DNA of 55,788 nt, from the IMG/VR virus record IMGVR_UViG_3300035494_000076, positions 1 to 55,788 of that record; one strand, written 5' to 3'. The stretch comes from a virus. Its lineage: Duplodnaviria > Caudoviricetes. This document shows positions 20,964 through 47,709 of this stretch, piece after piece (position 1 is the stretch's first letter; each line of letters begins with the position of its first letter). The notes below the pieces were generated by a model. It did not search any database. It was given only the letters and a program-made list of their open reading frames with translations, and was not told the DNA's origin. A program made the position numbers and the translations under genes.

Positions 20964-21509
20964 TCAGAACTTCATTGTGTAAGAAATCCCATAAGCAGTA
21001 AATCTCTCATCTCCGTATGAATGGGCATAGTCAAACTTCAGACCATGCTTTGTGCCACTAAGACTAACATCAAATCCAACCAATTGGCTGTTAAACTTAT
21101 AATCACTACTAAAGACGTCCCTATGTCTAACGTATACACCCGCGCTTCCATATTTGAAAGGTTTTGATGCCTTAGCCGCCACTACATAATAACCATCATC
21201 GGTGTAGCTATCCATTAGGCATCCTAAGCCTGTTCCAATGGTAAAATTTATCCCATCAACATTGTGTGTTTTTGATATAATACCTTGTGTTGTGGTTCGG
21301 TTGTATCTAGAATTTTTTGATTTCAGCCCCGTCATGTTCACGGACATTACCGTATTCAGTGGGGTTGAAAAATTTGTCTGTAAAGCCGCGCCATGCAAAT
21401 CGTTGCCTTTGTGATTTTCTATAAAGATGCTTTGTATAGAAACTGAGTTAGCTATTGTAACCATTGGCACACACGCAAGGGCGATTGCTGATAAAATGTT
21501 TTTCTTCAT
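20964..21509 (-). CDS. Outer-membrane beta-barrel-like protein
   Basis: Sec signal peptide, amphipathic beta strands, C-terminal YGISYTMKF beta-signal. Confidence 0.7.
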   Translation of the reverse strand: MKKNILSAIALACVPMVTIANSVSIQSIFIENHKGNDLHGAALQTNFSTPLNTVMSVNMTGLKSKNSRYNRTTTQGIISKTHNVDGINFTIGTGLGCLMDSYTDDGYYVVAAKASKPFKYGSAGVYVRHRDVFSSDYKFNSQLVGFDVSLSGTKHGLKFDYAHSYGDERFTAYGISYTMKF

Positions 21510-21544
21510 TCTGTTCTCCGAGATTAAAAATATATATTACAGAA

Positions 21545-21552
21545 TATTTATA
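21545..21552 (-). promoter_or_regulatory. Late promoter for the beta-barrel gene
   Basis: TATAAATA on the minus strand. Confidence 0.6.
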
Positions 21553-21558
21553 AATTAT

Positions 21559-21587
21559 GTTGACAACGCTTAAAACATATAATAGAA
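21559..21587 (+). promoter_or_regulatory. Sigma70-type promoter driving the non-coding region
   Basis: TTGACA-N17-TAGAAT; predicted +1 lies near the first stem at 21593. Confidence 0.7.
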
Positions 21588-21592
21588 TATAA

Positions 21593-22020
21593 ATCGTGTT
21601 GAGTTGGCTTGCTTTTGGCGTAAAATTGATAAGACCTATCTAATGCAACTCAACACGATAAACCAGAACAAGACAAATGGTAGTGCAGACTAAATAAATC
21701 TTGACTCACTGCATCGCGTAGGTTAAGATAGTCTTGTTGTCTAGTTGAACCAACGGACAGGGTTTAAAACAGTTTCCTACTTCTGTAAAAAGTAGGACTT
21801 ATCAAAATGGGTGTAAGTAATCCGACATTGTAAACCTTCGGGGGAGTTGATGAAAAACGGATGTAGTTCGATTACTCTTGGATTGAGAGTCTAGCACCCA
21901 TTTTGATAAGTGAGAAGTAACCTAGCCTAGCTGGTTATAAAGAAGTGGTGGCGTTAATGCTACGGTACTAACTTAATAGTGTGTCAACCACCATAATAGT
22001 AATGTGTGACTGCTCTACTT
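21593..22020 (+). ncRNA. Array of structured non-coding RNA domains, family unknown
   Basis: Perfect 14-bp, 8-bp, 8-bp and 17-bp closing stems with internal junctions and a possible pseudoknot; no ORF. Confidence 0.7.
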
Positions 22021-22109
22021 AACACTTATCGATCAAATTCTTTAACAGTGTACGTCTACATTAGATATTAAAGCAGGGAGTTTTAACTATTACAAAAAGG
22101 GGGAAGTTG

Positions 22110-22266
22110 ATGGGATTGTTTATTTGGAGCGTAGCTATTGTTTTACTTATTGTGTATATTGTATTACGAAAGCGGTCTGGACATAAAAGAGTTACATGAA
22201 AGAGACAAAAGCGCACTGCGTAGAGTTTTAACCAAAGAATATGCCGAAACTTTAAAAGAAATGTAA
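22110..22266 (+). pseudogene. Small membrane protein gene, frameshifted
   Basis: MGLFIWSVAIVLLIVYIVLRKR..* (22110-22199) continues in another frame as LDIKELHERDK...LKEM* to 22266. Confidence 0.45.
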
Positions 22267-22283
22267 TTGGAGAAGCGTGGAAT

Positions 22284-22799
22284 ATGACTGAGGAAGAGTA
22301 CCACATGAAATCCGCTTTTCTGATCGCGGAGTTATCGAAGTGTGAGAGAAAAAAGGTTGGAGCAGTATTGGTGAAAGACGGCAGACATTTATGTACTGCT
22401 CGGAATGGAACTCTTGCAGGGCAAGATAATTGTTGCGAAACTAAAGAGTATATGAACCCTGATTCTGGTGGATGGCTGGACTTAGAAACCATAGAAGAAC
22501 AATATCCATATAAAGCTGATAAAGGTCGTTACAAATTGGTAACGAATGAGTTGACATTGCACGCAGAGCAGAATATACTTACATACTGTGCTAAGAATGG
22601 AATACCAACAAATGGGTCAACCATCTACATTACCCTGAGTCCTTGTAAGACTTGTGCTAAACTAATGGCAAGTGCTGGAGTACAAAGAGTAGTATACAGT
22701 GAACAATATAGAGATACCGAAGGTGTTGATTTCTTAAAGAGAGTCGGCATCGAAGTCGAACAATATGATTTTTTACTACAAAAAGGAGAGGTGGGATGA
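22284..22799 (+). CDS. cd: dCMP deaminase
   Basis: KVGAVLV, HAEQN and PCKTC motifs. Confidence 0.93.
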   Translation: MTEEEYHMKSAFLIAELSKCERKKVGAVLVKDGRHLCTARNGTLAGQDNCCETKEYMNPDSGGWLDLETIEEQYPYKADKGRYKLVTNELTLHAEQNILTYCAKNGIPTNGSTIYITLSPCKTCAKLMASAGVQRVVYSEQYRDTEGVDFLKRVGIEVEQYDFLLQKGEVG

Positions 22800-22993
22800 G
22801 AGGTAAAGTGGCTAAAGCTTATCGTAAATTGGCAAAAACTATGCAGTTGTCTGAAACGGAATATATCGAAACACGACACCCGATTTATATGAAAAATGGT
22901 ATGCCTGTTATTGGTGTAACCATTCGACTCAAAGATGAGTGTGAACGAGGTTTCTATCAAAAATTAAAACACGCCCACACGCGAAGCCGATAA
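22796..22993 (+). CDS. Small basic hypothetical protein
   Basis: Translationally coupled ORF. Confidence 0.65.
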   Translation: MRGKVAKAYRKLAKTMQLSETEYIETRHPIYMKNGMPVIGVTIRLKDECERGFYQKLKHAHTRSR

Positions 22994-22997
22994 AAAC

Positions 22998-23023
22998 AAA
23001 ATCCCCTTAACTGGGGATTTTTT
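22998..23023 (+). terminator. Intrinsic terminator
   Basis: AAAATCCCC-TTAACT-GGGGATTTTTT. Confidence 0.85.
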
Positions 23024-23033
23024 ATATTAGGTA

Positions 23034-23062
23034 TTGACATTGAGGCTAAGGTTTAGTATACT
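23034..23062 (+). promoter_or_regulatory. Sigma70-type promoter
   Basis: TTGACA-N17-TATACT. Confidence 0.75.
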
Positions 23063-23092
23063 AACACACGTAAACAACAAAGGAGAGTCAAT

Positions 23093-23320
23093 ATGAAGCT
23101 AGTAGTGCCGTGGGAAGAAAAGAATACAACCATCAAGATCAAAAACATCGATGTAAACGAAAATCTTAACATTTCCTTAGACGTTAAGTATGATGAGTCT
23201 GTTGCCTCGAGAGTAGAAGTTGAAGAATTCCTCACAGTGTTCTTTACTGAAGCCATTAAAAACCAGATTGATGAGTTGTATATCGACAAGTATATCGAAA
23301 ATATTGAGAAAGGAGAATAG
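23093..23320 (+). CDS. Hypothetical protein
   Basis: SD AGGAG. Confidence 0.7.
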   Translation: MKLVVPWEEKNTTIKIKNIDVNENLNISLDVKYDESVASRVEVEEFLTVFFTEAIKNQIDELYIDKYIENIEKGE

Positions 23321-25539: not shown

Positions 25540-26150
25540 ATGAAGCAAGAAATAAGAAAATTGATACGAGAATCCCTTATGTAGGCGCAACAGCTAAATG
25601 AAGCTGTAAGATTTGGTAATAAACAGATTGCAGAGGTAATGCGCCATGCTAATAGTTTTCTAGTTGGTGGTGAGTTTGAGTTCTCATATGGCGATATTTC
25701 GTCTGATGTTGATTCTTATATAGATTCAGTGTCTGCTTATGAAGTAGACGAAGCGTATGGCAAACGTATGGAAGAAATATACGAAACCCTTGGTGATGCT
25801 TTTGCCATTATACATCTATCCGAGTCCGAAAGAGTATTTGAAGGAGTATTGGAGACTGGAAACTATGGCGAGGTTGATGTTGAGTACGCAGAAGAACTTC
25901 GCCTAGCAACCCAATACTTCTCGAAGATTCACCAAAGTGTTGCAAACGAAAATAGAATCATCGAAGCATTAGAATACACATACGGAAATGATATATTTGA
26001 TGAAGTCATAGCGAAAGCACCGTGGGCTATGCGAAACTTATCAAAACTCAAGCACAACATAGAGAATGGTGAATATGACGAAAATTTGGTGTCTGAGATA
26101 TACCAATACTTATTATACGTGAATGGGGTAGACCTCATCCAAGAACGATT
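25540..26150 (+). pseudogene. Truncated internal-head-protein-like gene
   Basis: AATAAATA and SD, then MKQEIRKLIRESLM*AQQLNEA with in-frame TAG at 25582; runs into a half terminator at 26149-26164. Confidence 0.65.
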
Positions 26151-26190
26151 GGGGATTTTTTTTTATCCCACAATAAAAGGAGAGATTTTT

Positions 26191-27390
26191 ATGTTTAAAC
26201 TGCCATCACTACGACAAGCGAAACGTCTAGTTAAAAAATATAAGCATTTTGTGATGAAAAAAGAAATCATTGATGGGAAAACTGTTTATCAATTCGACTA
26301 TCTTTTAGCAAGCCCAAAAGACTTCACAGTAACCCCTTATGCAAAAGAACTAAGAGGCATTGCTTATGTTTCCTCATTCTTTGGATTAATCAACGAAACT
26401 GTACCAATGCTACATAAGTTTCACAATCTTAATGAGTGTGATGGTTATATGTTCGATGACTTAAATGGATGGGTAGTCTTAGGTATTCAGGAAAAGGATG
26501 ATGGGTCTGTTATTAACTTCATCAATATTGCTGGAAAGTTTTATGCCAAGTCTAAGTATTCATTCCAATCATATCAGTCACAGAAAGCCCAAGAACTTTT
26601 TGATAATAGTTCAAACCTTCAGAAGTGTGTTTCATTTTTCTATGATATGGGATATACGCCAATCTTTGAATTAGTTGGTAGAGATAATCCTATTGTTGTT
26701 GAATATGGAGACTTGGAACTAAGACTTATTCAGATAAGAAGTACAGAAACTGGTAATTATGTTCATCCAAAAAATATTCTAATGTGGGCAGGACACTTCA
26801 ACGTACCAACAGGAAAGTTTGATCCTATCATGGGTCTTGAACCAACATTCGGAAACGTATTTGACCGATACTACAAAGACAAAGTAGAAACCTTAGAAGG
26901 GATAGAGGGTTGGGTGTTTACACTAGAACACCCAATAACAGGAGAAACTAAATTAGTCAAGGTTAAGACAAAATGGTATCTAGCCCTTCATGGTATAATG
27001 ACTGGCTCAACATTGTTTGCTAATAATATCATTGAGTATATCCTAACCGATACGATTGATGATGTTGTTTCTAGTATGAAGTTTGTTGAAAACGATTTCC
27101 GTAAGAAGTTTATTGATGAAACAATAGAAACTATTGACAACTACTATAATACGGAATATACTAGACTTGTTAATATTCTTGAAAAGTATAAGCATATGGA
27201 TAACAAAGAGTTTGCTAATCAATATAAAACTACTCCAAACTTCCATGTACTGATGGCGGGGCGAAAAGGGAAAGATGTTGGTAAACTTCTTAAAGAATCC
27301 ATCATCCGTCAAACACGCAAAAAAGAAATGGCTGAGACTTTTCTACAAGATATAAAGGAGAAAGATAATGGAAGTATTACAGTGGTTTAG
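26191..27390 (+). CDS. rnlA: RNA ligase 1 (T4 Rnl1/gp63-like)
   Basis: SD AGGAG before ATG 26191; ELRG, KFHN, motif I EKDDGS, FELV..DNPIV, EGWV and KVKT.WY. Confidence 0.9.
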   Translation: MFKLPSLRQAKRLVKKYKHFVMKKEIIDGKTVYQFDYLLASPKDFTVTPYAKELRGIAYVSSFFGLINETVPMLHKFHNLNECDGYMFDDLNGWVVLGIQEKDDGSVINFINIAGKFYAKSKYSFQSYQSQKAQELFDNSSNLQKCVSFFYDMGYTPIFELVGRDNPIVVEYGDLELRLIQIRSTETGNYVHPKNILMWAGHFNVPTGKFDPIMGLEPTFGNVFDRYYKDKVETLEGIEGWVFTLEHPITGETKLVKVKTKWYLALHGIMTGSTLFANNIIEYILTDTIDDVVSSMKFVENDFRKKFIDETIETIDNYYNTEYTRLVNILEKYKHMDNKEFANQYKTTPNFHVLMAGRKGKDVGKLLKESIIRQTRKKEMAETFLQDIKEKDNGSITVV

Positions 27391-28417
27391 AAAAAATCAT
27401 CCAAACGTTTTAGAAAGAATGAAGAATGTTCCGCATGGATATGTGGATGGATATTTAGAAAGTTATTCTCCATATCATTTAGAGGGTGATGTGTATACCC
27501 ATACCATGCTAGTATATAGCCATGCGGCTAAAAATTTTGCAAATGAGCCGGAACTTCTAGCCGCACTATTGCATGATTATGGTAAAGTGTTTACAGCATT
27601 TGATGACCACGAGAAGCAAAGAAGATTTTTCCGTGGACATGAGGGGGTTTCTTTCTTTCGTTCCATTAACATTGTAAAAGAATATATGCAATCTTCCGAT
27701 ATGGGTAATCTATCAGAAGAAGCAAGAGATGAATTGACGAAAGCTGTTTTATTTGCAATCGCAAATCATGGAGTTGGTTTTAACCATAACCCAAGAACAA
27801 AAGAAGATGTAGAAAAATTGGTTTCTGTTGTTAATAAAACTGAAAAATATATGTTAGACGGATTGATGGAAGCAGATTATTTGGGGAAGATTTGTGAGAA
27901 AAAGAACAAGAAATCCCTTGACCTTTTTCAAGTTGTCGGAGTCGATAAACCACCTGTAGACTTCTATAAGGAAGTTGTTATTATGGTTGGATTACCAGGT
28001 TCAGGAAAGTCTACTTATATTAAAAATAACTTACCAACGCACTCGGTTGTTTCAAGAGATGAAATTGTGGAAGCAATGAATCCTGATATGAGTTATGCCA
28101 AAGCATTTAGAAATGCAGACCAAAAAGAAGTTGATAGACTTCTCATGGAAAAGTATAATGAATCGTTAAAAACATCAACTAAGGTTGTGGTTGATTTAAC
28201 TAACCTTTCTAAGAAGTCAAGAAAGAAATGGATTACACTAGCTAGACAAAAGCAATTTAATGTTCGTGCTGTTATTATGGCAACCGACTTTATGGACTGT
28301 TGTCAGAGAAGAAATGCAACTGAAAAGATTGTACCTTATAGCGTCATTGCGGATATGTCAACCAAGTTCACCTACCCTCTTGGTGACGAAGTTGATGCTG
28401 TCCAAATGGTTATATAA
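27368..28417 (+). CDS. HD phosphoesterase + P-loop polynucleotide kinase (HD-Pnk)
   Basis: HLEGDVYTHT, LLHDYGK and GHE motifs; GLPGSGKST, SRD and DLTNLS..SR. Confidence 0.88.
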   Translation: MEVLQWFRKNHPNVLERMKNVPHGYVDGYLESYSPYHLEGDVYTHTMLVYSHAAKNFANEPELLAALLHDYGKVFTAFDDHEKQRRFFRGHEGVSFFRSINIVKEYMQSSDMGNLSEEARDELTKAVLFAIANHGVGFNHNPRTKEDVEKLVSVVNKTEKYMLDGLMEADYLGKICEKKNKKSLDLFQVVGVDKPPVDFYKEVVIMVGLPGSGKSTYIKNNLPTHSVVSRDEIVEAMNPDMSYAKAFRNADQKEVDRLLMEKYNESLKTSTKVVVDLTNLSKKSRKKWITLARQKQFNVRAVIMATDFMDCCQRRNATEKIVPYSVIADMSTKFTYPLGDEVDAVQMVI

Positions 28418-30620: not shown

Positions 30621-32780
30621 ATGAATGTACTGAGTCTTTTTGATGGTTTAAGTGGCTGTCGCATAGCGCTTGAGCGCGTAGGCATACCCCCTTCAAAATA
30701 TTATGCGAGTGAGATTGATAAATATGCAATCAAAGTAGCGCAAGCCAATTACCCCGATACGGTGCAATTAGGGAGTGTGACAGAATGGCAAAACTGGGAT
30801 ATTGATTGGTCGAGTATTGACTTGGTGACAGGTGGCTTTCCATGCTTTGTTGCAGGTACGCTTGTTACAACAAGGGATGGTCTAAAGCCAATCGAGGAAG
30901 TTAAGAAAGGTGACGAGGTTATTACGCACAAACATCGCTTTAAAAAAGTTGTTGTACCCATGATTAAAGTTTCAGACCACTTTAATTTAGTAAAAATACA
31001 AGGCAGTCATGAGCTAAAAGTGACAGATGAACACCCATTTTATGTTCGTGAGTTGAGTAGAAAATGGGATAACGAATTAAGAAGAGATAAGCGTTGCTTC
31101 TCAGAGCCAAAGTGGGTTGACTGTAAGGATTTGACCACAAATCACTTTGTAGGCGTACCTATCAACCAAAACTCAATTTCCCCAAGTTTCAGTAGTGATA
31201 TTCATTTTTGGTATATGATTGGCCGATATGTTGCAGATGGATATAGCAGCACTACAAATAAGCATAGCCGTGGTAAGGACAATTCTAAAGCTGACAGACG
31301 AGTTTATAAGACAATTATTACTTGCGGAAAGCATGAAGAACCTCAAATGGATTCAATTATAAATTCAGTTGATTACCATACAACAAAATCTGTAGAACGA
31401 ACAAGTATTAAGTACACCATCTCGAATAAAGAATTATGGGAGTTTGTGCAATCTTTTGGGCGAGGTGCTGAAAACAAAGAGATACCGCCATTTTTATTTG
31501 ACGCACCAATTGAGATTATTAAATCGTTCTTAAATGGTTATTTATCAGGTGATGGCTGTTTAATCCACAGTGAAGAATATAAACGCAATAAGAACATGAG
31601 CCAGTTGACAACTGTGAGTGAAAAGTTGGCTTATGGTTTAATACAGCTTGTGCAAAAAGCATACAAAACTCAGCCAACAATAACAAAAGCAAAAGTTGCT
31701 TCAAAGAAAATAATTGAGGGTAGAGAGGTTAATCAGAAACCATTTTTTGCCGTTCGTTTTTATAAACAAAAACCTAGACTAGCAAAATATTTTGAAGAAG
31801 ACGGCTTTATATGGACACCATTTAAATCAAAAGAACGCTTTGAGGAATCAATTCCTGTTTACAATTTTGAGGTTGAAGATGACAATTCTTATGCGGTTAA
31901 TAATTTAATCGTACATAACTGCCAGGCCTGGTCGGTCGCTGGTAAACAGATGGGCGATAAAGACGAGCGCGGTATGTTGTTTTGGACTATGCTTGATGTG
32001 ATGAAGCAGGTTAGGAAGCACAATCCAAATGCCCATTTCTTGGTTGAGAACGTCAAGATGAAGAAAGATTTTGAACAGTACATCACCCATCACACCGTAC
32101 AAGCGTTAGGTGAGGTGCATAAAATCTTGATTAATTCAGCATTAGTATCGGCTCAAAACCGTAATCGGTATTATTGGACTAGCTTCCCTGTAACACAGCC
32201 CGAAGATAAGGGCATTGTGTTGGCGGATATTATTGAGAGCGGTGAAGCAACTGGTGAGATGACAACTAAAAATGGTAAAAGTTATGGACTAACAGCGTCT
32301 TATGGAGGGGCGGTGGCATGGAATAGCATAGCTAAAAAGCAAGGGTCTATGATTTTAGAACGCCCTTGTGAGCCACGTGAATTTAATGAAAATTCAATCT
32401 GTCATCGTGAGCCTAAGGTTTTATGCGGTGCTATGCGTGGGCGATACATTGTTGATGGTAAACGACAAGACCATAAAATGAAAACAGCAGGATTGACCGA
32501 GCAAAGGCTAGAAATTAGACAGGATGAAAAAACCAACAGCCTAACAACGGTGCAAAAAGATAATGTTGTGGTTGAAGACTTGAAGGCGCTAACTTATCGC
32601 AAACTCACACCGCTGGAATGTGAGCGGTTACAAACCTTGCCTGATAATTACACAGCACACGTGAGTAATTCGCAACGTTACAAGATGATTGGTAATGGCT
32701 GGACTATTGACGTTATTGCTCATATACTGCATTGTATGTTAAGTCCACCAAAAAAGAAAGAAAGCCTATTTGGGTTTTAG
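30621..32780 (+). CDS. C5-cytosine DNA methyltransferase containing an intein
   Basis: LSLFDG, GGFP|CQ, ENV, Q.R.R and RYKMIGNGW motifs. Confidence 0.95.
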   Translation: MNVLSLFDGLSGCRIALERVGIPPSKYYASEIDKYAIKVAQANYPDTVQLGSVTEWQNWDIDWSSIDLVTGGFPCFVAGTLVTTRDGLKPIEEVKKGDEVITHKHRFKKVVVPMIKVSDHFNLVKIQGSHELKVTDEHPFYVRELSRKWDNELRRDKRCFSEPKWVDCKDLTTNHFVGVPINQNSISPSFSSDIHFWYMIGRYVADGYSSTTNKHSRGKDNSKADRRVYKTIITCGKHEEPQMDSIINSVDYHTTKSVERTSIKYTISNKELWEFVQSFGRGAENKEIPPFLFDAPIEIIKSFLNGYLSGDGCLIHSEEYKRNKNMSQLTTVSEKLAYGLIQLVQKAYKTQPTITKAKVASKKIIEGREVNQKPFFAVRFYKQKPRLAKYFEEDGFIWTPFKSKERFEESIPVYNFEVEDDNSYAVNNLIVHNCQAWSVAGKQMGDKDERGMLFWTMLDVMKQVRKHNPNAHFLVENVKMKKDFEQYITHHTVQALGEVHKILINSALVSAQNRNRYYWTSFPVTQPEDKGIVLADIIESGEATGEMTTKNGKSYGLTASYGGAVAWNSIAKKQGSMILERPCEPREFNENSICHREPKVLCGAMRGRYIVDGKRQDHKMKTAGLTEQRLEIRQDEKTNSLTTVQKDNVVVEDLKALTYRKLTPLECERLQTLPDNYTAHVSNSQRYKMIGNGWTIDVIAHILHCMLSPPKKKESLFGF
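30843..31919 (+). mobile_element. Intein (359 aa) with LAGLIDADG homing endonuclease
   Basis: Starts CFVAGT; block B TDEHPF; IGRYVADG and LNGYLSGDG; ends VYNFEV...VHN; +1 residue is Cys. Confidence 0.95.
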
Positions 32781-47645: not shown

Positions 47646-47680
47646 TTGACTTCTCCTTTATGACTTGTTTAAGTTTGTTT

Positions 47681-47709
47681 ATTATATACAAGTCATAAAA
47701 GATTGTCAA
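47681..47709 (-). promoter_or_regulatory. Sigma70-type promoter
   Basis: TTGACA...TATAAT on the minus strand. Confidence 0.75.

Follow-up and report, generated by a model that had tools for sequence, protein, structure and literature searches.

The closest described kinds of the locus reported here are the phage T4 RNAs RNAC and RNAD, ribonuclease III (RNase III) processing stems, PeSL cassettes and Y RNAs. In the part of a review that deals with them, the biological roles of RNAC and RNAD are called unknown (PMC3014915). PeSLs, in the passages that describe them, join strong sigma70-like promoters to stem-loops in the variable regions of T4-type phages, where recombination swaps the intervening sequence; they flank ORFans, are about 100 bp long, recur genome-wide and act as terminators (PMC2839356). 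Y RNAs, according to excerpts of two papers, have a variable, sometimes tRNA-like module and a stem in which the 5' and 3' ends pair (PMC4201824, PMC12135203), and an excerpt of the second describes two Y-like RNAs, Yrl1 and Yrl2, upstream of the Ro60 gene of Thermus phage phiLo (PMC12135203). Within the literature on phage tRNA-like RNAs, tRNA clusters and processing stems, we found no description of exchangeable RNA inserts framed by stems. Such an arrangement is suggested here for positions 21,559 to 22,020 of the IMG/VR virus record IMGVR_UViG_3300035494_000076, whose whole analysed stretch of 55,788 nt (55.8 kb) we call the window. The record is a fragment of an uncultured T4-like jumbo phage, with an estimated completeness of 19%. 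A first-pass annotation had read the locus as a promoter-driven array of five folded non-coding RNA units. We compared it with a sister phage, represented by the IMG/VR contig G001, and with DNA contigs of near-identical strains from other metagenomes, and found that two long helices and a small hairpin abutting the second are kept by compensatory changes and that the sequences enclosed by the helices have been swapped.

The elements of the locus, with the units numbered as in that annotation and the long stems called holders, are as follows:

21560-21588, plus strand: early sigma70-type promoter-like site, TTGACA-17-TAGAAT, 11/12 matches
21593-21606/21646-21659, plus strand: stem of holder 1 (unit 1), perfect 14 bp, closing a 39-nt interior
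21619-21645, plus strand: core of the holder 1 interior, homologous to the G001 promoter element before tRNA-Arg and the deaminase gene
21667-21674/21731-21738, plus strand: closing stem of unit 2, AACAAGAC/GTCTTGTT, perfect 8 bp, with inner pairings; the element spans 21667-21738
21775-21782/21790-21797, plus strand: hairpin of unit 3, perfect 8 bp, abutting holder 2 and conserved in G001
21797-21813/21895-21911, plus strand: stem of holder 2 (unit 4), perfect 17 bp (+3), enclosing an 81-nt insert
21814-21894, plus strand: exchangeable insert of holder 2, unlike the G001 insert and replaced in other strains
21850-21894, plus strand: mini-ORF (open reading frame, ORF) of 14 codons with a strong ribosome site, stopping at the 3' arm of the 17-bp stem
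21905-22030, plus strand: possible holder 3, a weak, imperfect 15-nt inverted repeat (13/15) enclosing unit 5

The promoter claimed for the start of the array is borne out as a promoter-like site. The window has 4 sites of its general pattern, TTGACA-N17-TANAAT, where 0.11 would be expected, and 0 of 100 shuffles reached 4; the site itself is identical in the strain contigs X3 and X7. Transcription from it would start at about 21595-21596, which is 2-3 nt within the first stem.

Ranked by length, the 17-bp and 14-bp repeats come first and second among the perfect inverted repeats of the window (arms up to 300 nt apart). An inverted repeat of 17-mers appeared in none of 100 dinucleotide shuffles, and any of 14-mers in 12 of 100. 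When the fold of each unit was set against 200 dinucleotide shuffles, no shuffle was as stable as unit 1 (z -4.81) or unit 4 (z -4.41). The excess was modest for unit 3 (z -2.48, 6/200 shuffles equally stable), and units 2 (z -2.00, 5/200) and 5 (z -2.01, 8/200) were near chance; the whole array on the plus strand reached z -4.31. The proposal of five folded units can therefore be kept for the stems of units 1, 3 and 4, which exist and are conserved or beyond chance, and not for units 2 and 5 as domains, where the complementary stretches are present but near chance and have no counterpart in G001. A pseudoknot had been drawn for unit 2 and is sterically possible, but RNAfold puts its second helix into a nested fold. 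The T-loop-like GTTCGAT noted in unit 4 is just a 7-nt resemblance on a 3-bp stem, and the interior of this unit gave no stable prediction, its centroid holding little beyond the closing stem. Seven nucleotides (7 nt) belong both to the 5' arm of the possible holder 3 and to the 3' arm of holder 2, which puts the two pairings in competition. The heptamer ACTTATC, of which 3 of the 9 window copies fall within the RNA locus, was considered as a genome-wide site and rejected, as it shows no general enrichment in the window.

Relatives of the locus were sought with DNA patterns and with scans guided by neighbouring proteins, and the sole related contig was G001 (loci L018, L021, L109 and L256). 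In IMG/VR, the pattern of the 17-mer arms matched 17 loci, all by chance and on a single arm; the hairpin pattern matched 10 loci, among which the G001 contig alone is related; and the unit 1 core had G001 as its single match. Protein-guided scans with the orphan ORF bordering the locus gave no relatives. The deaminase scan found only G001 in IMG/VR and none with the single protein in metagenomes, and a two-protein deaminase alignment retrieved 80 loci, all at 42% identity or less; the small subunit of ribonucleotide reductase retrieved G001 and 43 loci at 46-50%. In GTDB genomes there were 94 pattern matches, against which blastn and tblastx of the locus found nothing. No GenBank phage is close to the window phage: 901 nt of the locus gave 0 DNA matches, a 51-nt query gave 3 chance-level rows, and holder 1 of G001 as query gave just T-arm-sized matches to Lactococcus phages.

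The G001 contig, also a fragment (completeness estimate 21%), and the window are collinear for about 40 kb, with DNA identities of 66-78%. The RNA array of G001 is a gene-free stretch of 1.1 kb one gene downstream of its deaminase, so that relative to the deaminase gene the RNA locus lies on one side in G001 and on the other in the window. The array starts with a 12/12 promoter, followed by a first stem of 21 bp that encloses a tRNA-like module with an acceptor and a perfect T-arm. This module is in ordinary tRNA order and scores 19.3 bits with the tRNA model, below the 29-bit cut-off. About 200 nt of other folds come next, then the hairpin and a second stem of 21 columns around a rod-like hairpin, and finally more folds, a tRNA-Met and a terminator-like GC-based hairpin with the U-run GUUUUUAUU. 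The array holds no ORFan, its whole fold has z -7.11 against shuffles, and the top inverted repeats of G001 are the same two helices. The G001 ortholog of the window locus is an RNA operon of its own, running from promoter to terminator and including a real tRNA. As for the neighbouring G001 deaminase (L018 3986-4816), it carries a 105-aa C-terminal extension, being 276 aa long against 171 aa in the window, and its leader contains a tRNA-Arg(UCU) upstream of the gene.

Both phages share the order promoter, long stem 1, variable RNA, hairpin, long stem 2, and in both long stem 1 opens with AATCGT a few bases past the -10 box. Significant similarity between the two loci is limited to unit 1 (Smith-Waterman score 54 against 26.8 ± 3.0 in shuffles) and to unit 3 with the first bases of unit 4 (46 against 21.1 ± 2.2), where the 41-nt block 21768-21808 is 83% identical to L018 5527-5567. 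Units 2 and 5 and the interior of unit 4 scored at shuffle level (unit 2: 27 against 27.1).

Of the 14 pairs of holder 1 compared with stem 1 of G001, 8 are identical and 6 are changed on both sides yet remain paired. The register of this comparison was set by us, ungapped from the shared outer five pairs (ATCGT/ACGAT), and the pairs were counted by script; MAFFT misplaced the arms by a 3-nt shift or a gap, and the pair-count tool was thus unused for holder 1. In the MAFFT alignment of the hairpin and holder 2, pairing holds in 54 of 56 cells, and both partners differ in 6 of 28 pairs; when the partner was displaced by 1-3 columns, pairing fell to 37-43%, with 0-3 double changes. Five of the 21 aligned pair columns of holder 2 are changed on both sides, and among the 7 pairs of the hairpin there is 1 double change and 1 change from C-G to U-G, which pairs on the plus strand only. 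Single-side transitions in the long stems and the hairpin together are of the G-U type on the plus strand in 5 cases and of the A-C type in 1. In G001, the hairpin plus stem folds at -49.2 kcal/mol on the plus strand against -33.1 kcal/mol on the minus strand, and the plus strand folded better in 11 of the 11 segments tested. An RNA helix on the plus strand predicts such double changes and such a wobble bias, and the comparison of the two species suggests that the stems covary. The long stems and the hairpin alike are thus kept by compensatory changes, which is what the first-pass annotation had proposed to look for, and its description of a structured non-coding RNA region on the plus strand behind an early-type promoter is supported by the stems, the orthology and the covariation. 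No covariation is claimed for the 6-bp stem at the promoter-like element of G001 (z -0.43, 66/200 shuffles as stable).

The contents of the stems differ between strains. A look-up of sequencing runs with the locus returned no RNA run, and the strain contigs are all DNA. In these contigs, with 30 letters of each unlike stretch examined, X3 matches 21719-21813 and continues with 213 unlike letters, and X7 matches 21357-21808 and continues with 203. Contig X5 begins to match the window at 21898, after 165 unlike letters whose last part is a canonical T-arm (5-bp stem, TTCGATT loop), and X6 departs at 22031, one base past the 3' arm of the holder 3 repeat. The points of departure or joining at 21808, 21813 and 21898 are stem arms and come from three runs of two studies. 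Between the window phage and G001, the inserts of both stems are unrelated. In the X5 strain and in G001 stem 1, the cassette sits flush against the 3' arm, like the 3' end of a tRNA. As far as sequence comparison goes, the stems are constant frames and their contents are cassettes. An inversion of the insert in X3 was rejected by eye, as its first 30 unlike letters are not the reverse complement of the window insert.

Pieces of other origin can be recognized inside the holders. The G001 element homologous to the core of holder 1 is TTGACA-17-TAAAAT with TG (11/12), and the window retains a weak promoter-like remnant, TTGAGT-16-TAAAAT at 21599-21626 (9/12); the unit 1 core is single-copy in the window with up to 3 mismatches. 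Inside holder 2, the 13-nt direct repeat 21840-21852 / 22100-22112 copies the ribosome site and start codon of the small ORF that follows the leader, and we read this repeat and the mini-ORF as a probable recombination scar, not a gene.

By a crude ORF call, the gap between genes that contains the locus (21510-22283, 774 nt) is larger than any other in the window, the second longest measuring 253 nt. The claim that the locus is free of ORFs holds in this respect, and has to be qualified for the mini-ORF with its strong ribosome site. The borders of the gap and the first frame after the leader are:

20964-21509, minus strand: orphan ORF of 181 aa with a signal-peptide-like start, ending ...YTMKF; left border of the gap
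22107-22199, plus strand: small ORF of 30 aa, hydrophobic then basic, with a strong ribosome site; first frame after the leader
22284-22799, plus strand: dCMP deaminase gene (Pfam PF00383, E 9e-22); right border of the gap

The orphan ORF has no Pfam or PHROG family, its sole match among 5.8 billion proteins is itself, and synteny indicates that it is missing from G001. In the strain contig X7, 841 letters stand in place of 106 nt of this ORF. Contigs X3, X5 and X6 break at 22158/22162 inside the small ORF, with a 5-nt overlap, as if other strains had an insertion of at least 139 letters there. A terminator scan found no plus-strand terminator-like site in 21590-22400, and the deaminase gene is probably co-transcribed with the leader.

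Genes of the T4 set on the window include those for ribonucleotide reductase, thymidylate synthase, dNMP kinase, dCMP deaminase, dihydrofolate reductase and a PAAR spike tip. At 25639-28417, an RnlA-like RNA ligase with a 200-aa N-terminal part of unknown kind overlaps a protein combining HD and P-loop kinase parts; they are a T4-type RNA (tRNA) repair pair, 4 kb downstream of the RNA locus. Further on, at 30621-32780, a C5 cytosine DNA methylase is split by an intein with a LAGLIDADG domain, and the extein portions share 65% identity with the ICP1 (Vibrio phage) methylase.

We give about an even chance to the reading of the locus as an early non-coding modular leader or stable-RNA operon of a hyperplastic region, whose helices would act as processing or protection stems in RNA and as homology for exchange in DNA. 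The leader would be the non-coding first ~500 nt of an early unit that runs from the promoter at 21560 through the small ORF at 22107 to the deaminase gene, and the stretch as a whole would be the rearranged counterpart of the tRNA and stable-RNA operon of the sister phage. Its working parts would be two long helices, possibly three, formed by the sequences flanking the inserts, with the small hairpin abutting the second. Selection would preserve the helices and leave the inserts exchangeable, and the latter would be of several kinds: a tRNA-like module, a T-arm insert, a rod-like hairpin, a promoter-derived piece and a branched 81-nt piece. At the RNA level, a host enzyme of the RNase III type could cut the helices, freeing or trimming the enclosed module and separating the leader from the message. 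With no terminator ahead of the small ORF and the deaminase gene, cleavage probably detaches the leader from the message. The first-pass annotation had already put forward that cuts at the long stems might release the RNAs, which is a reasonable idea. At the DNA level, the conserved arms could provide homology for the exchange of inserts between co-infecting phages.

Several points weigh against this reading. Transcription, RNA ends and cleavage, as well as any function of the window modules, are predictions from the DNA sequence. RNase III substrates are usually about 20 bp long, and the window stems have 14 and 17 bp; the predicted start removes 2-3 nt of holder 1; and the window modules resemble no tRNA. 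The case is built from two species and strain contigs, the shuffle control available for two sequences is weak (12/500 shuffles reached the observed values), and the register of holder 1 is our own choice. A DNA site recognized on both arms would give the same concerted change of the arms. The wobble bias of 5/6 is by itself not significant (about 0.11 under a 50:50 null), and the window stems are perfect, thus strand-neutral. Units 2 and 5 may be filler.

The main rival is a DNA-only reading, in which the locus consists of PeSL-type cassette junctions of a hyperplastic region, early promoters are joined to stem-loops serving as attenuators and homology linkers in module shuffling, and what look like RNA modules would be passengers or scars without a role as stable RNAs. 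This reading accounts for the breakpoints and for unit 1, and we regard it as possible, though rather unlikely. In its favour are the homology between the interior of unit 1 and a real-looking G001 promoter (11/12 with TG), which is typical of PeSL cassettes, and two other sites of the window that resemble such cassettes: at 47654-47709 on the minus strand, a consensus promoter has its -10 box between the arms of an 18-nt inverted repeat, and at 22999-23060, after the next gene, a terminator is directly followed by a consensus promoter. The strain breakpoints lie at the arms (21808, 21813, 21898 and 22031) and inside the small ORF, the 13-nt repeat of ribosome site and start resembles a recombination scar, and the locus is found on different sides of the deaminase in the two phages. 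Linkers, however, recur through the genome, whereas the unit 1 core occurs once. Exchange by homology needs no inverted flanks, yet 12 double changes keep the arms complementary, and the folding energies and the strand bias favour the plus strand. Moreover, the G001 locus places a tRNA and a tRNA-like RNA, and no ORFan, between promoter and terminator, and no plus-strand U-run follows any stem of the window.

A second alternative starts from the neighbourhood in G001. The gene after the array there (L018 6155-7648) encodes 497 aa with DUF2828 and DUF7788, and its predicted structure (predicted local distance difference test, pLDDT, 87.8) matches Ro60, Rsr or phage Ro60 over the full length in all of the 12 best PDB matches listed (E 1.6e-9 to 1.7e-5). 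The sequence profile of the protein also matches a phage TROVE protein at the vWA metal site (E 0.0034). Given this confident model, we take the gene product to be Ro60-like. The long stems could then be Y-RNA-like scaffolds that bind a phage Ro60-like protein, with exchangeable inserts as effector modules. Put for the window, they would be docking stems of phage Y-like RNAs, with interchangeable tRNA-like, hairpin or branched effectors, in a partnership with a DUF2828-type Ro60, of which the RNA half lies here, away from the protein gene. This partnership would be an undescribed one of much broader occurrence in large phages, the Ro60 homolog being located in the tRNA gene cluster along with stem-closed RNAs of long and short form. 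We consider both forms of this idea unlikely. Its appeal comes from G001, where the array ends about 120 nt upstream of the Ro60-like gene on the same strand, and from phage Ro60-like genes at large, which lie among same-strand tRNA genes at 24 of 80 loci. Holder 1 of G001, a long stem with a tRNA-like module, has the general design given for YrlA in the passage concerned (PMC4201824), and the pair of Y-like RNAs in phiLo also stands upstream of the Ro60 gene, as the relevant part of the source has it (PMC12135203).

Against it, searches with TROVE, DUF2828 and the family profile found no match in the window, which covers about 19% of a genome, so that a Ro60 gene within about 4 kb on the same strand, as expected for Y RNAs, is found in G001 and not in the window. 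The motifs GNCGAAN0-1G and CGAA, expected of Y RNAs close to the 5' end or within the bulge, are missing from both arrays (regular expression, window 21590-22110 and L018 5000-6150). Rfam holds a YrlA model, and no Y-RNA family gave a row at E<=10. The permuted tRNA-like domain of YrlA was not found either, the G001 module being in ordinary order and the window having no T-arm. The motif CWGCAAA, frequent near phage Ro60-like genes (see below), occurs in two other G001 hairpins (L018 5007-5127, just before the array promoter), not in the holders, and is absent from 21000-23200 of the window. A model of the RNA next to phage Ro60-like genes, built in this analysis (R1), gave its best window match outside the locus (E 0.28) and unit 4 only at E 2.4, which assigns neither to that family.

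The Ro60-like genes show features of their own. The family comprises more than 6262 proteins at E<=1e-5 among the 8000 candidates scored and is common in big phage contigs. At the 24 of 80 IMG/VR loci mentioned above (L256-L335), the distance from the gene to tRNA or tmRNA genes, which all share its strand, is no more than 3 kb. In many phages, an unannotated stem-closed RNA directly follows the stop codon of the Ro60-like gene (members are L268 4416-4610, L269, L275, L279, L285, L315 and L318). Among seven near-identical RNAs of this kind, some are long, carrying a T-arm-like hairpin as insert, and others are short. In 33 of 76 loci CWGCAAA is found no more than 200 nt past the stop, compared with 4-10 of 74-79 in four control windows. 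The hairpin stems carrying the motif beat 95% of shuffles in 2 of 32 cases, in a test that is not discriminating in AT-rich sequence, and Rfam searches of the first 20 of the 80 loci returned tRNAs only.

It is less probable still, and in our view quite unlikely, that the locus is a cis-acting 5' leader tuning the stability or translation of the message for the small ORF and the deaminase, for instance by protection through a 5' stem or by a switch of the GATAAGT arm. The array and these genes are separated by no terminator, holder 1 starts at the predicted 5' end in both phages, and for the 3' arm of holder 2 there are two possible partners, at 21797 and 22024, with a matching third copy of the arm in G001 10 nt after its stem. 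The similarity after this third copy is, however, marginal (31 against 22.9 ± 4.0), and the G001 stems belong to a separate, terminator-ended unit before no ORF of its own, which argues that the stems do not need the deaminase gene.

Searches for a known family also bear on what the first-pass annotation had offered as functions. For tRNA membership we asked for at least 29 bits with the Rfam model (RF00005) or an ARAGORN call. ARAGORN found 0 tRNAs in the window, also at lowered thresholds, and the tRNA model returned no row at E<=10 in 21400-22200, in agreement with the statement that none of the units folds as a canonical tRNA; 3 intron-containing ARAGORN calls (-ps80 -i) were taken as spurious. 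The locus matches no Rfam family at gathering scores, the outcome of the Infernal/Rfam-type check that had been proposed, and at E<=10 it gives microRNA-type rows only, which reflect the long stems. No ribozyme family matched in Rfam at E<=10. Tandem Repeats Finder gave 0 rows and the only direct repeats in the locus are three short two-copy ones, which leaves the antitoxin array without a repeat to build on. No unit resembles the G001 tRNAs (best z 2.4, with 6/200 shuffles as high), and units 2, 4 and 5 as decayed tRNAs were rejected for want of significant similarity to them. The ideas of decoys, antitoxins and ribozymes thus found no support, and tRNA mimicry by the window units fared no better.

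Separate small RNAs acting as tRNA mimics, decoys, antitoxin mimics or self-cleaving ribozymes are therefore very improbable: the same stems do enclose a tRNA-like module and a T-arm in relatives, and the tRNA repair pair downstream implies that the phage meets attacks on tRNA, but the window units are not tRNA-like by ARAGORN, by the tRNA model or against the G001 tRNAs, neither a repeat array as in type III antitoxins nor a ribozyme family match was found, and the inner folds are unstable in prediction.

The locus gives a concrete anatomy for the extra stable RNAs long known from phage tRNA regions, with covarying helices that frame inserts, some of them tRNA-like, which vary from strain to strain and from species to species. 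A role as processing stems would make this a plug-in format for the expression of small RNAs from an early leader; a role as docking stems for Ro60 would link the format to RNA quality control and repair during infection. With about 450 nt and two stems, both easily disrupted and repaired by mutation, it is a compact test case. The presence of the Ro60-like gene in phage tRNA clusters, and of the unannotated RNA directly following it, extends to dozens of uncultured phages and may be of wider importance.

Compared with the known systems, the stem RNAs of G001 resemble YrlA/YrlB and Yrl1/Yrl2 in standing in tandem upstream of a Ro60-like gene on the same strand, an arrangement that, together with a long stem and a tRNA-like module, is the signature of Y RNAs. 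They differ from Y RNAs in that the G001 tRNA-like part is not permuted, and the window has neither a Ro60-like gene nor the binding motifs nor an Rfam match. As in PeSLs, an 11/12 promoter in a variable region is followed by a stem, here of 14 bp around a weak promoter-like match. Unlike PeSLs, the inserts are RNA-sized and lie in stems, the motif is single-copy, and the stems have no U-run after them on the plus strand. With the RNase III stems of the 16S/23S rRNA leader and trailer and of the T7 early RNA, the locus shares helices formed by the flanks of the enclosed RNA. As in the T7 early RNA, stems of 17-21 bp stand behind an early host-type promoter, and the transcript is predicted to read into genes. 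The length of about two helical turns typical of RNase III stems compares with 14 and 17 bp (+3) in the window and 21 and 21 pair columns in G001. The T7 RNase III sites have internal loops and the window stems of 14 and 17 bp are perfect; the contents vary between strains, with no fixed mature RNA. From RNAC and RNAD the window locus differs in having no tRNA and no sequence match to GenBank phages, and we know of no exchangeable inserts in long stems for either RNA. What it shares with them is the setting, since RNAC and RNAD are phage non-coding RNAs that accompany tRNA genes in an early cluster, and the G001 counterpart of the locus is such a cluster.

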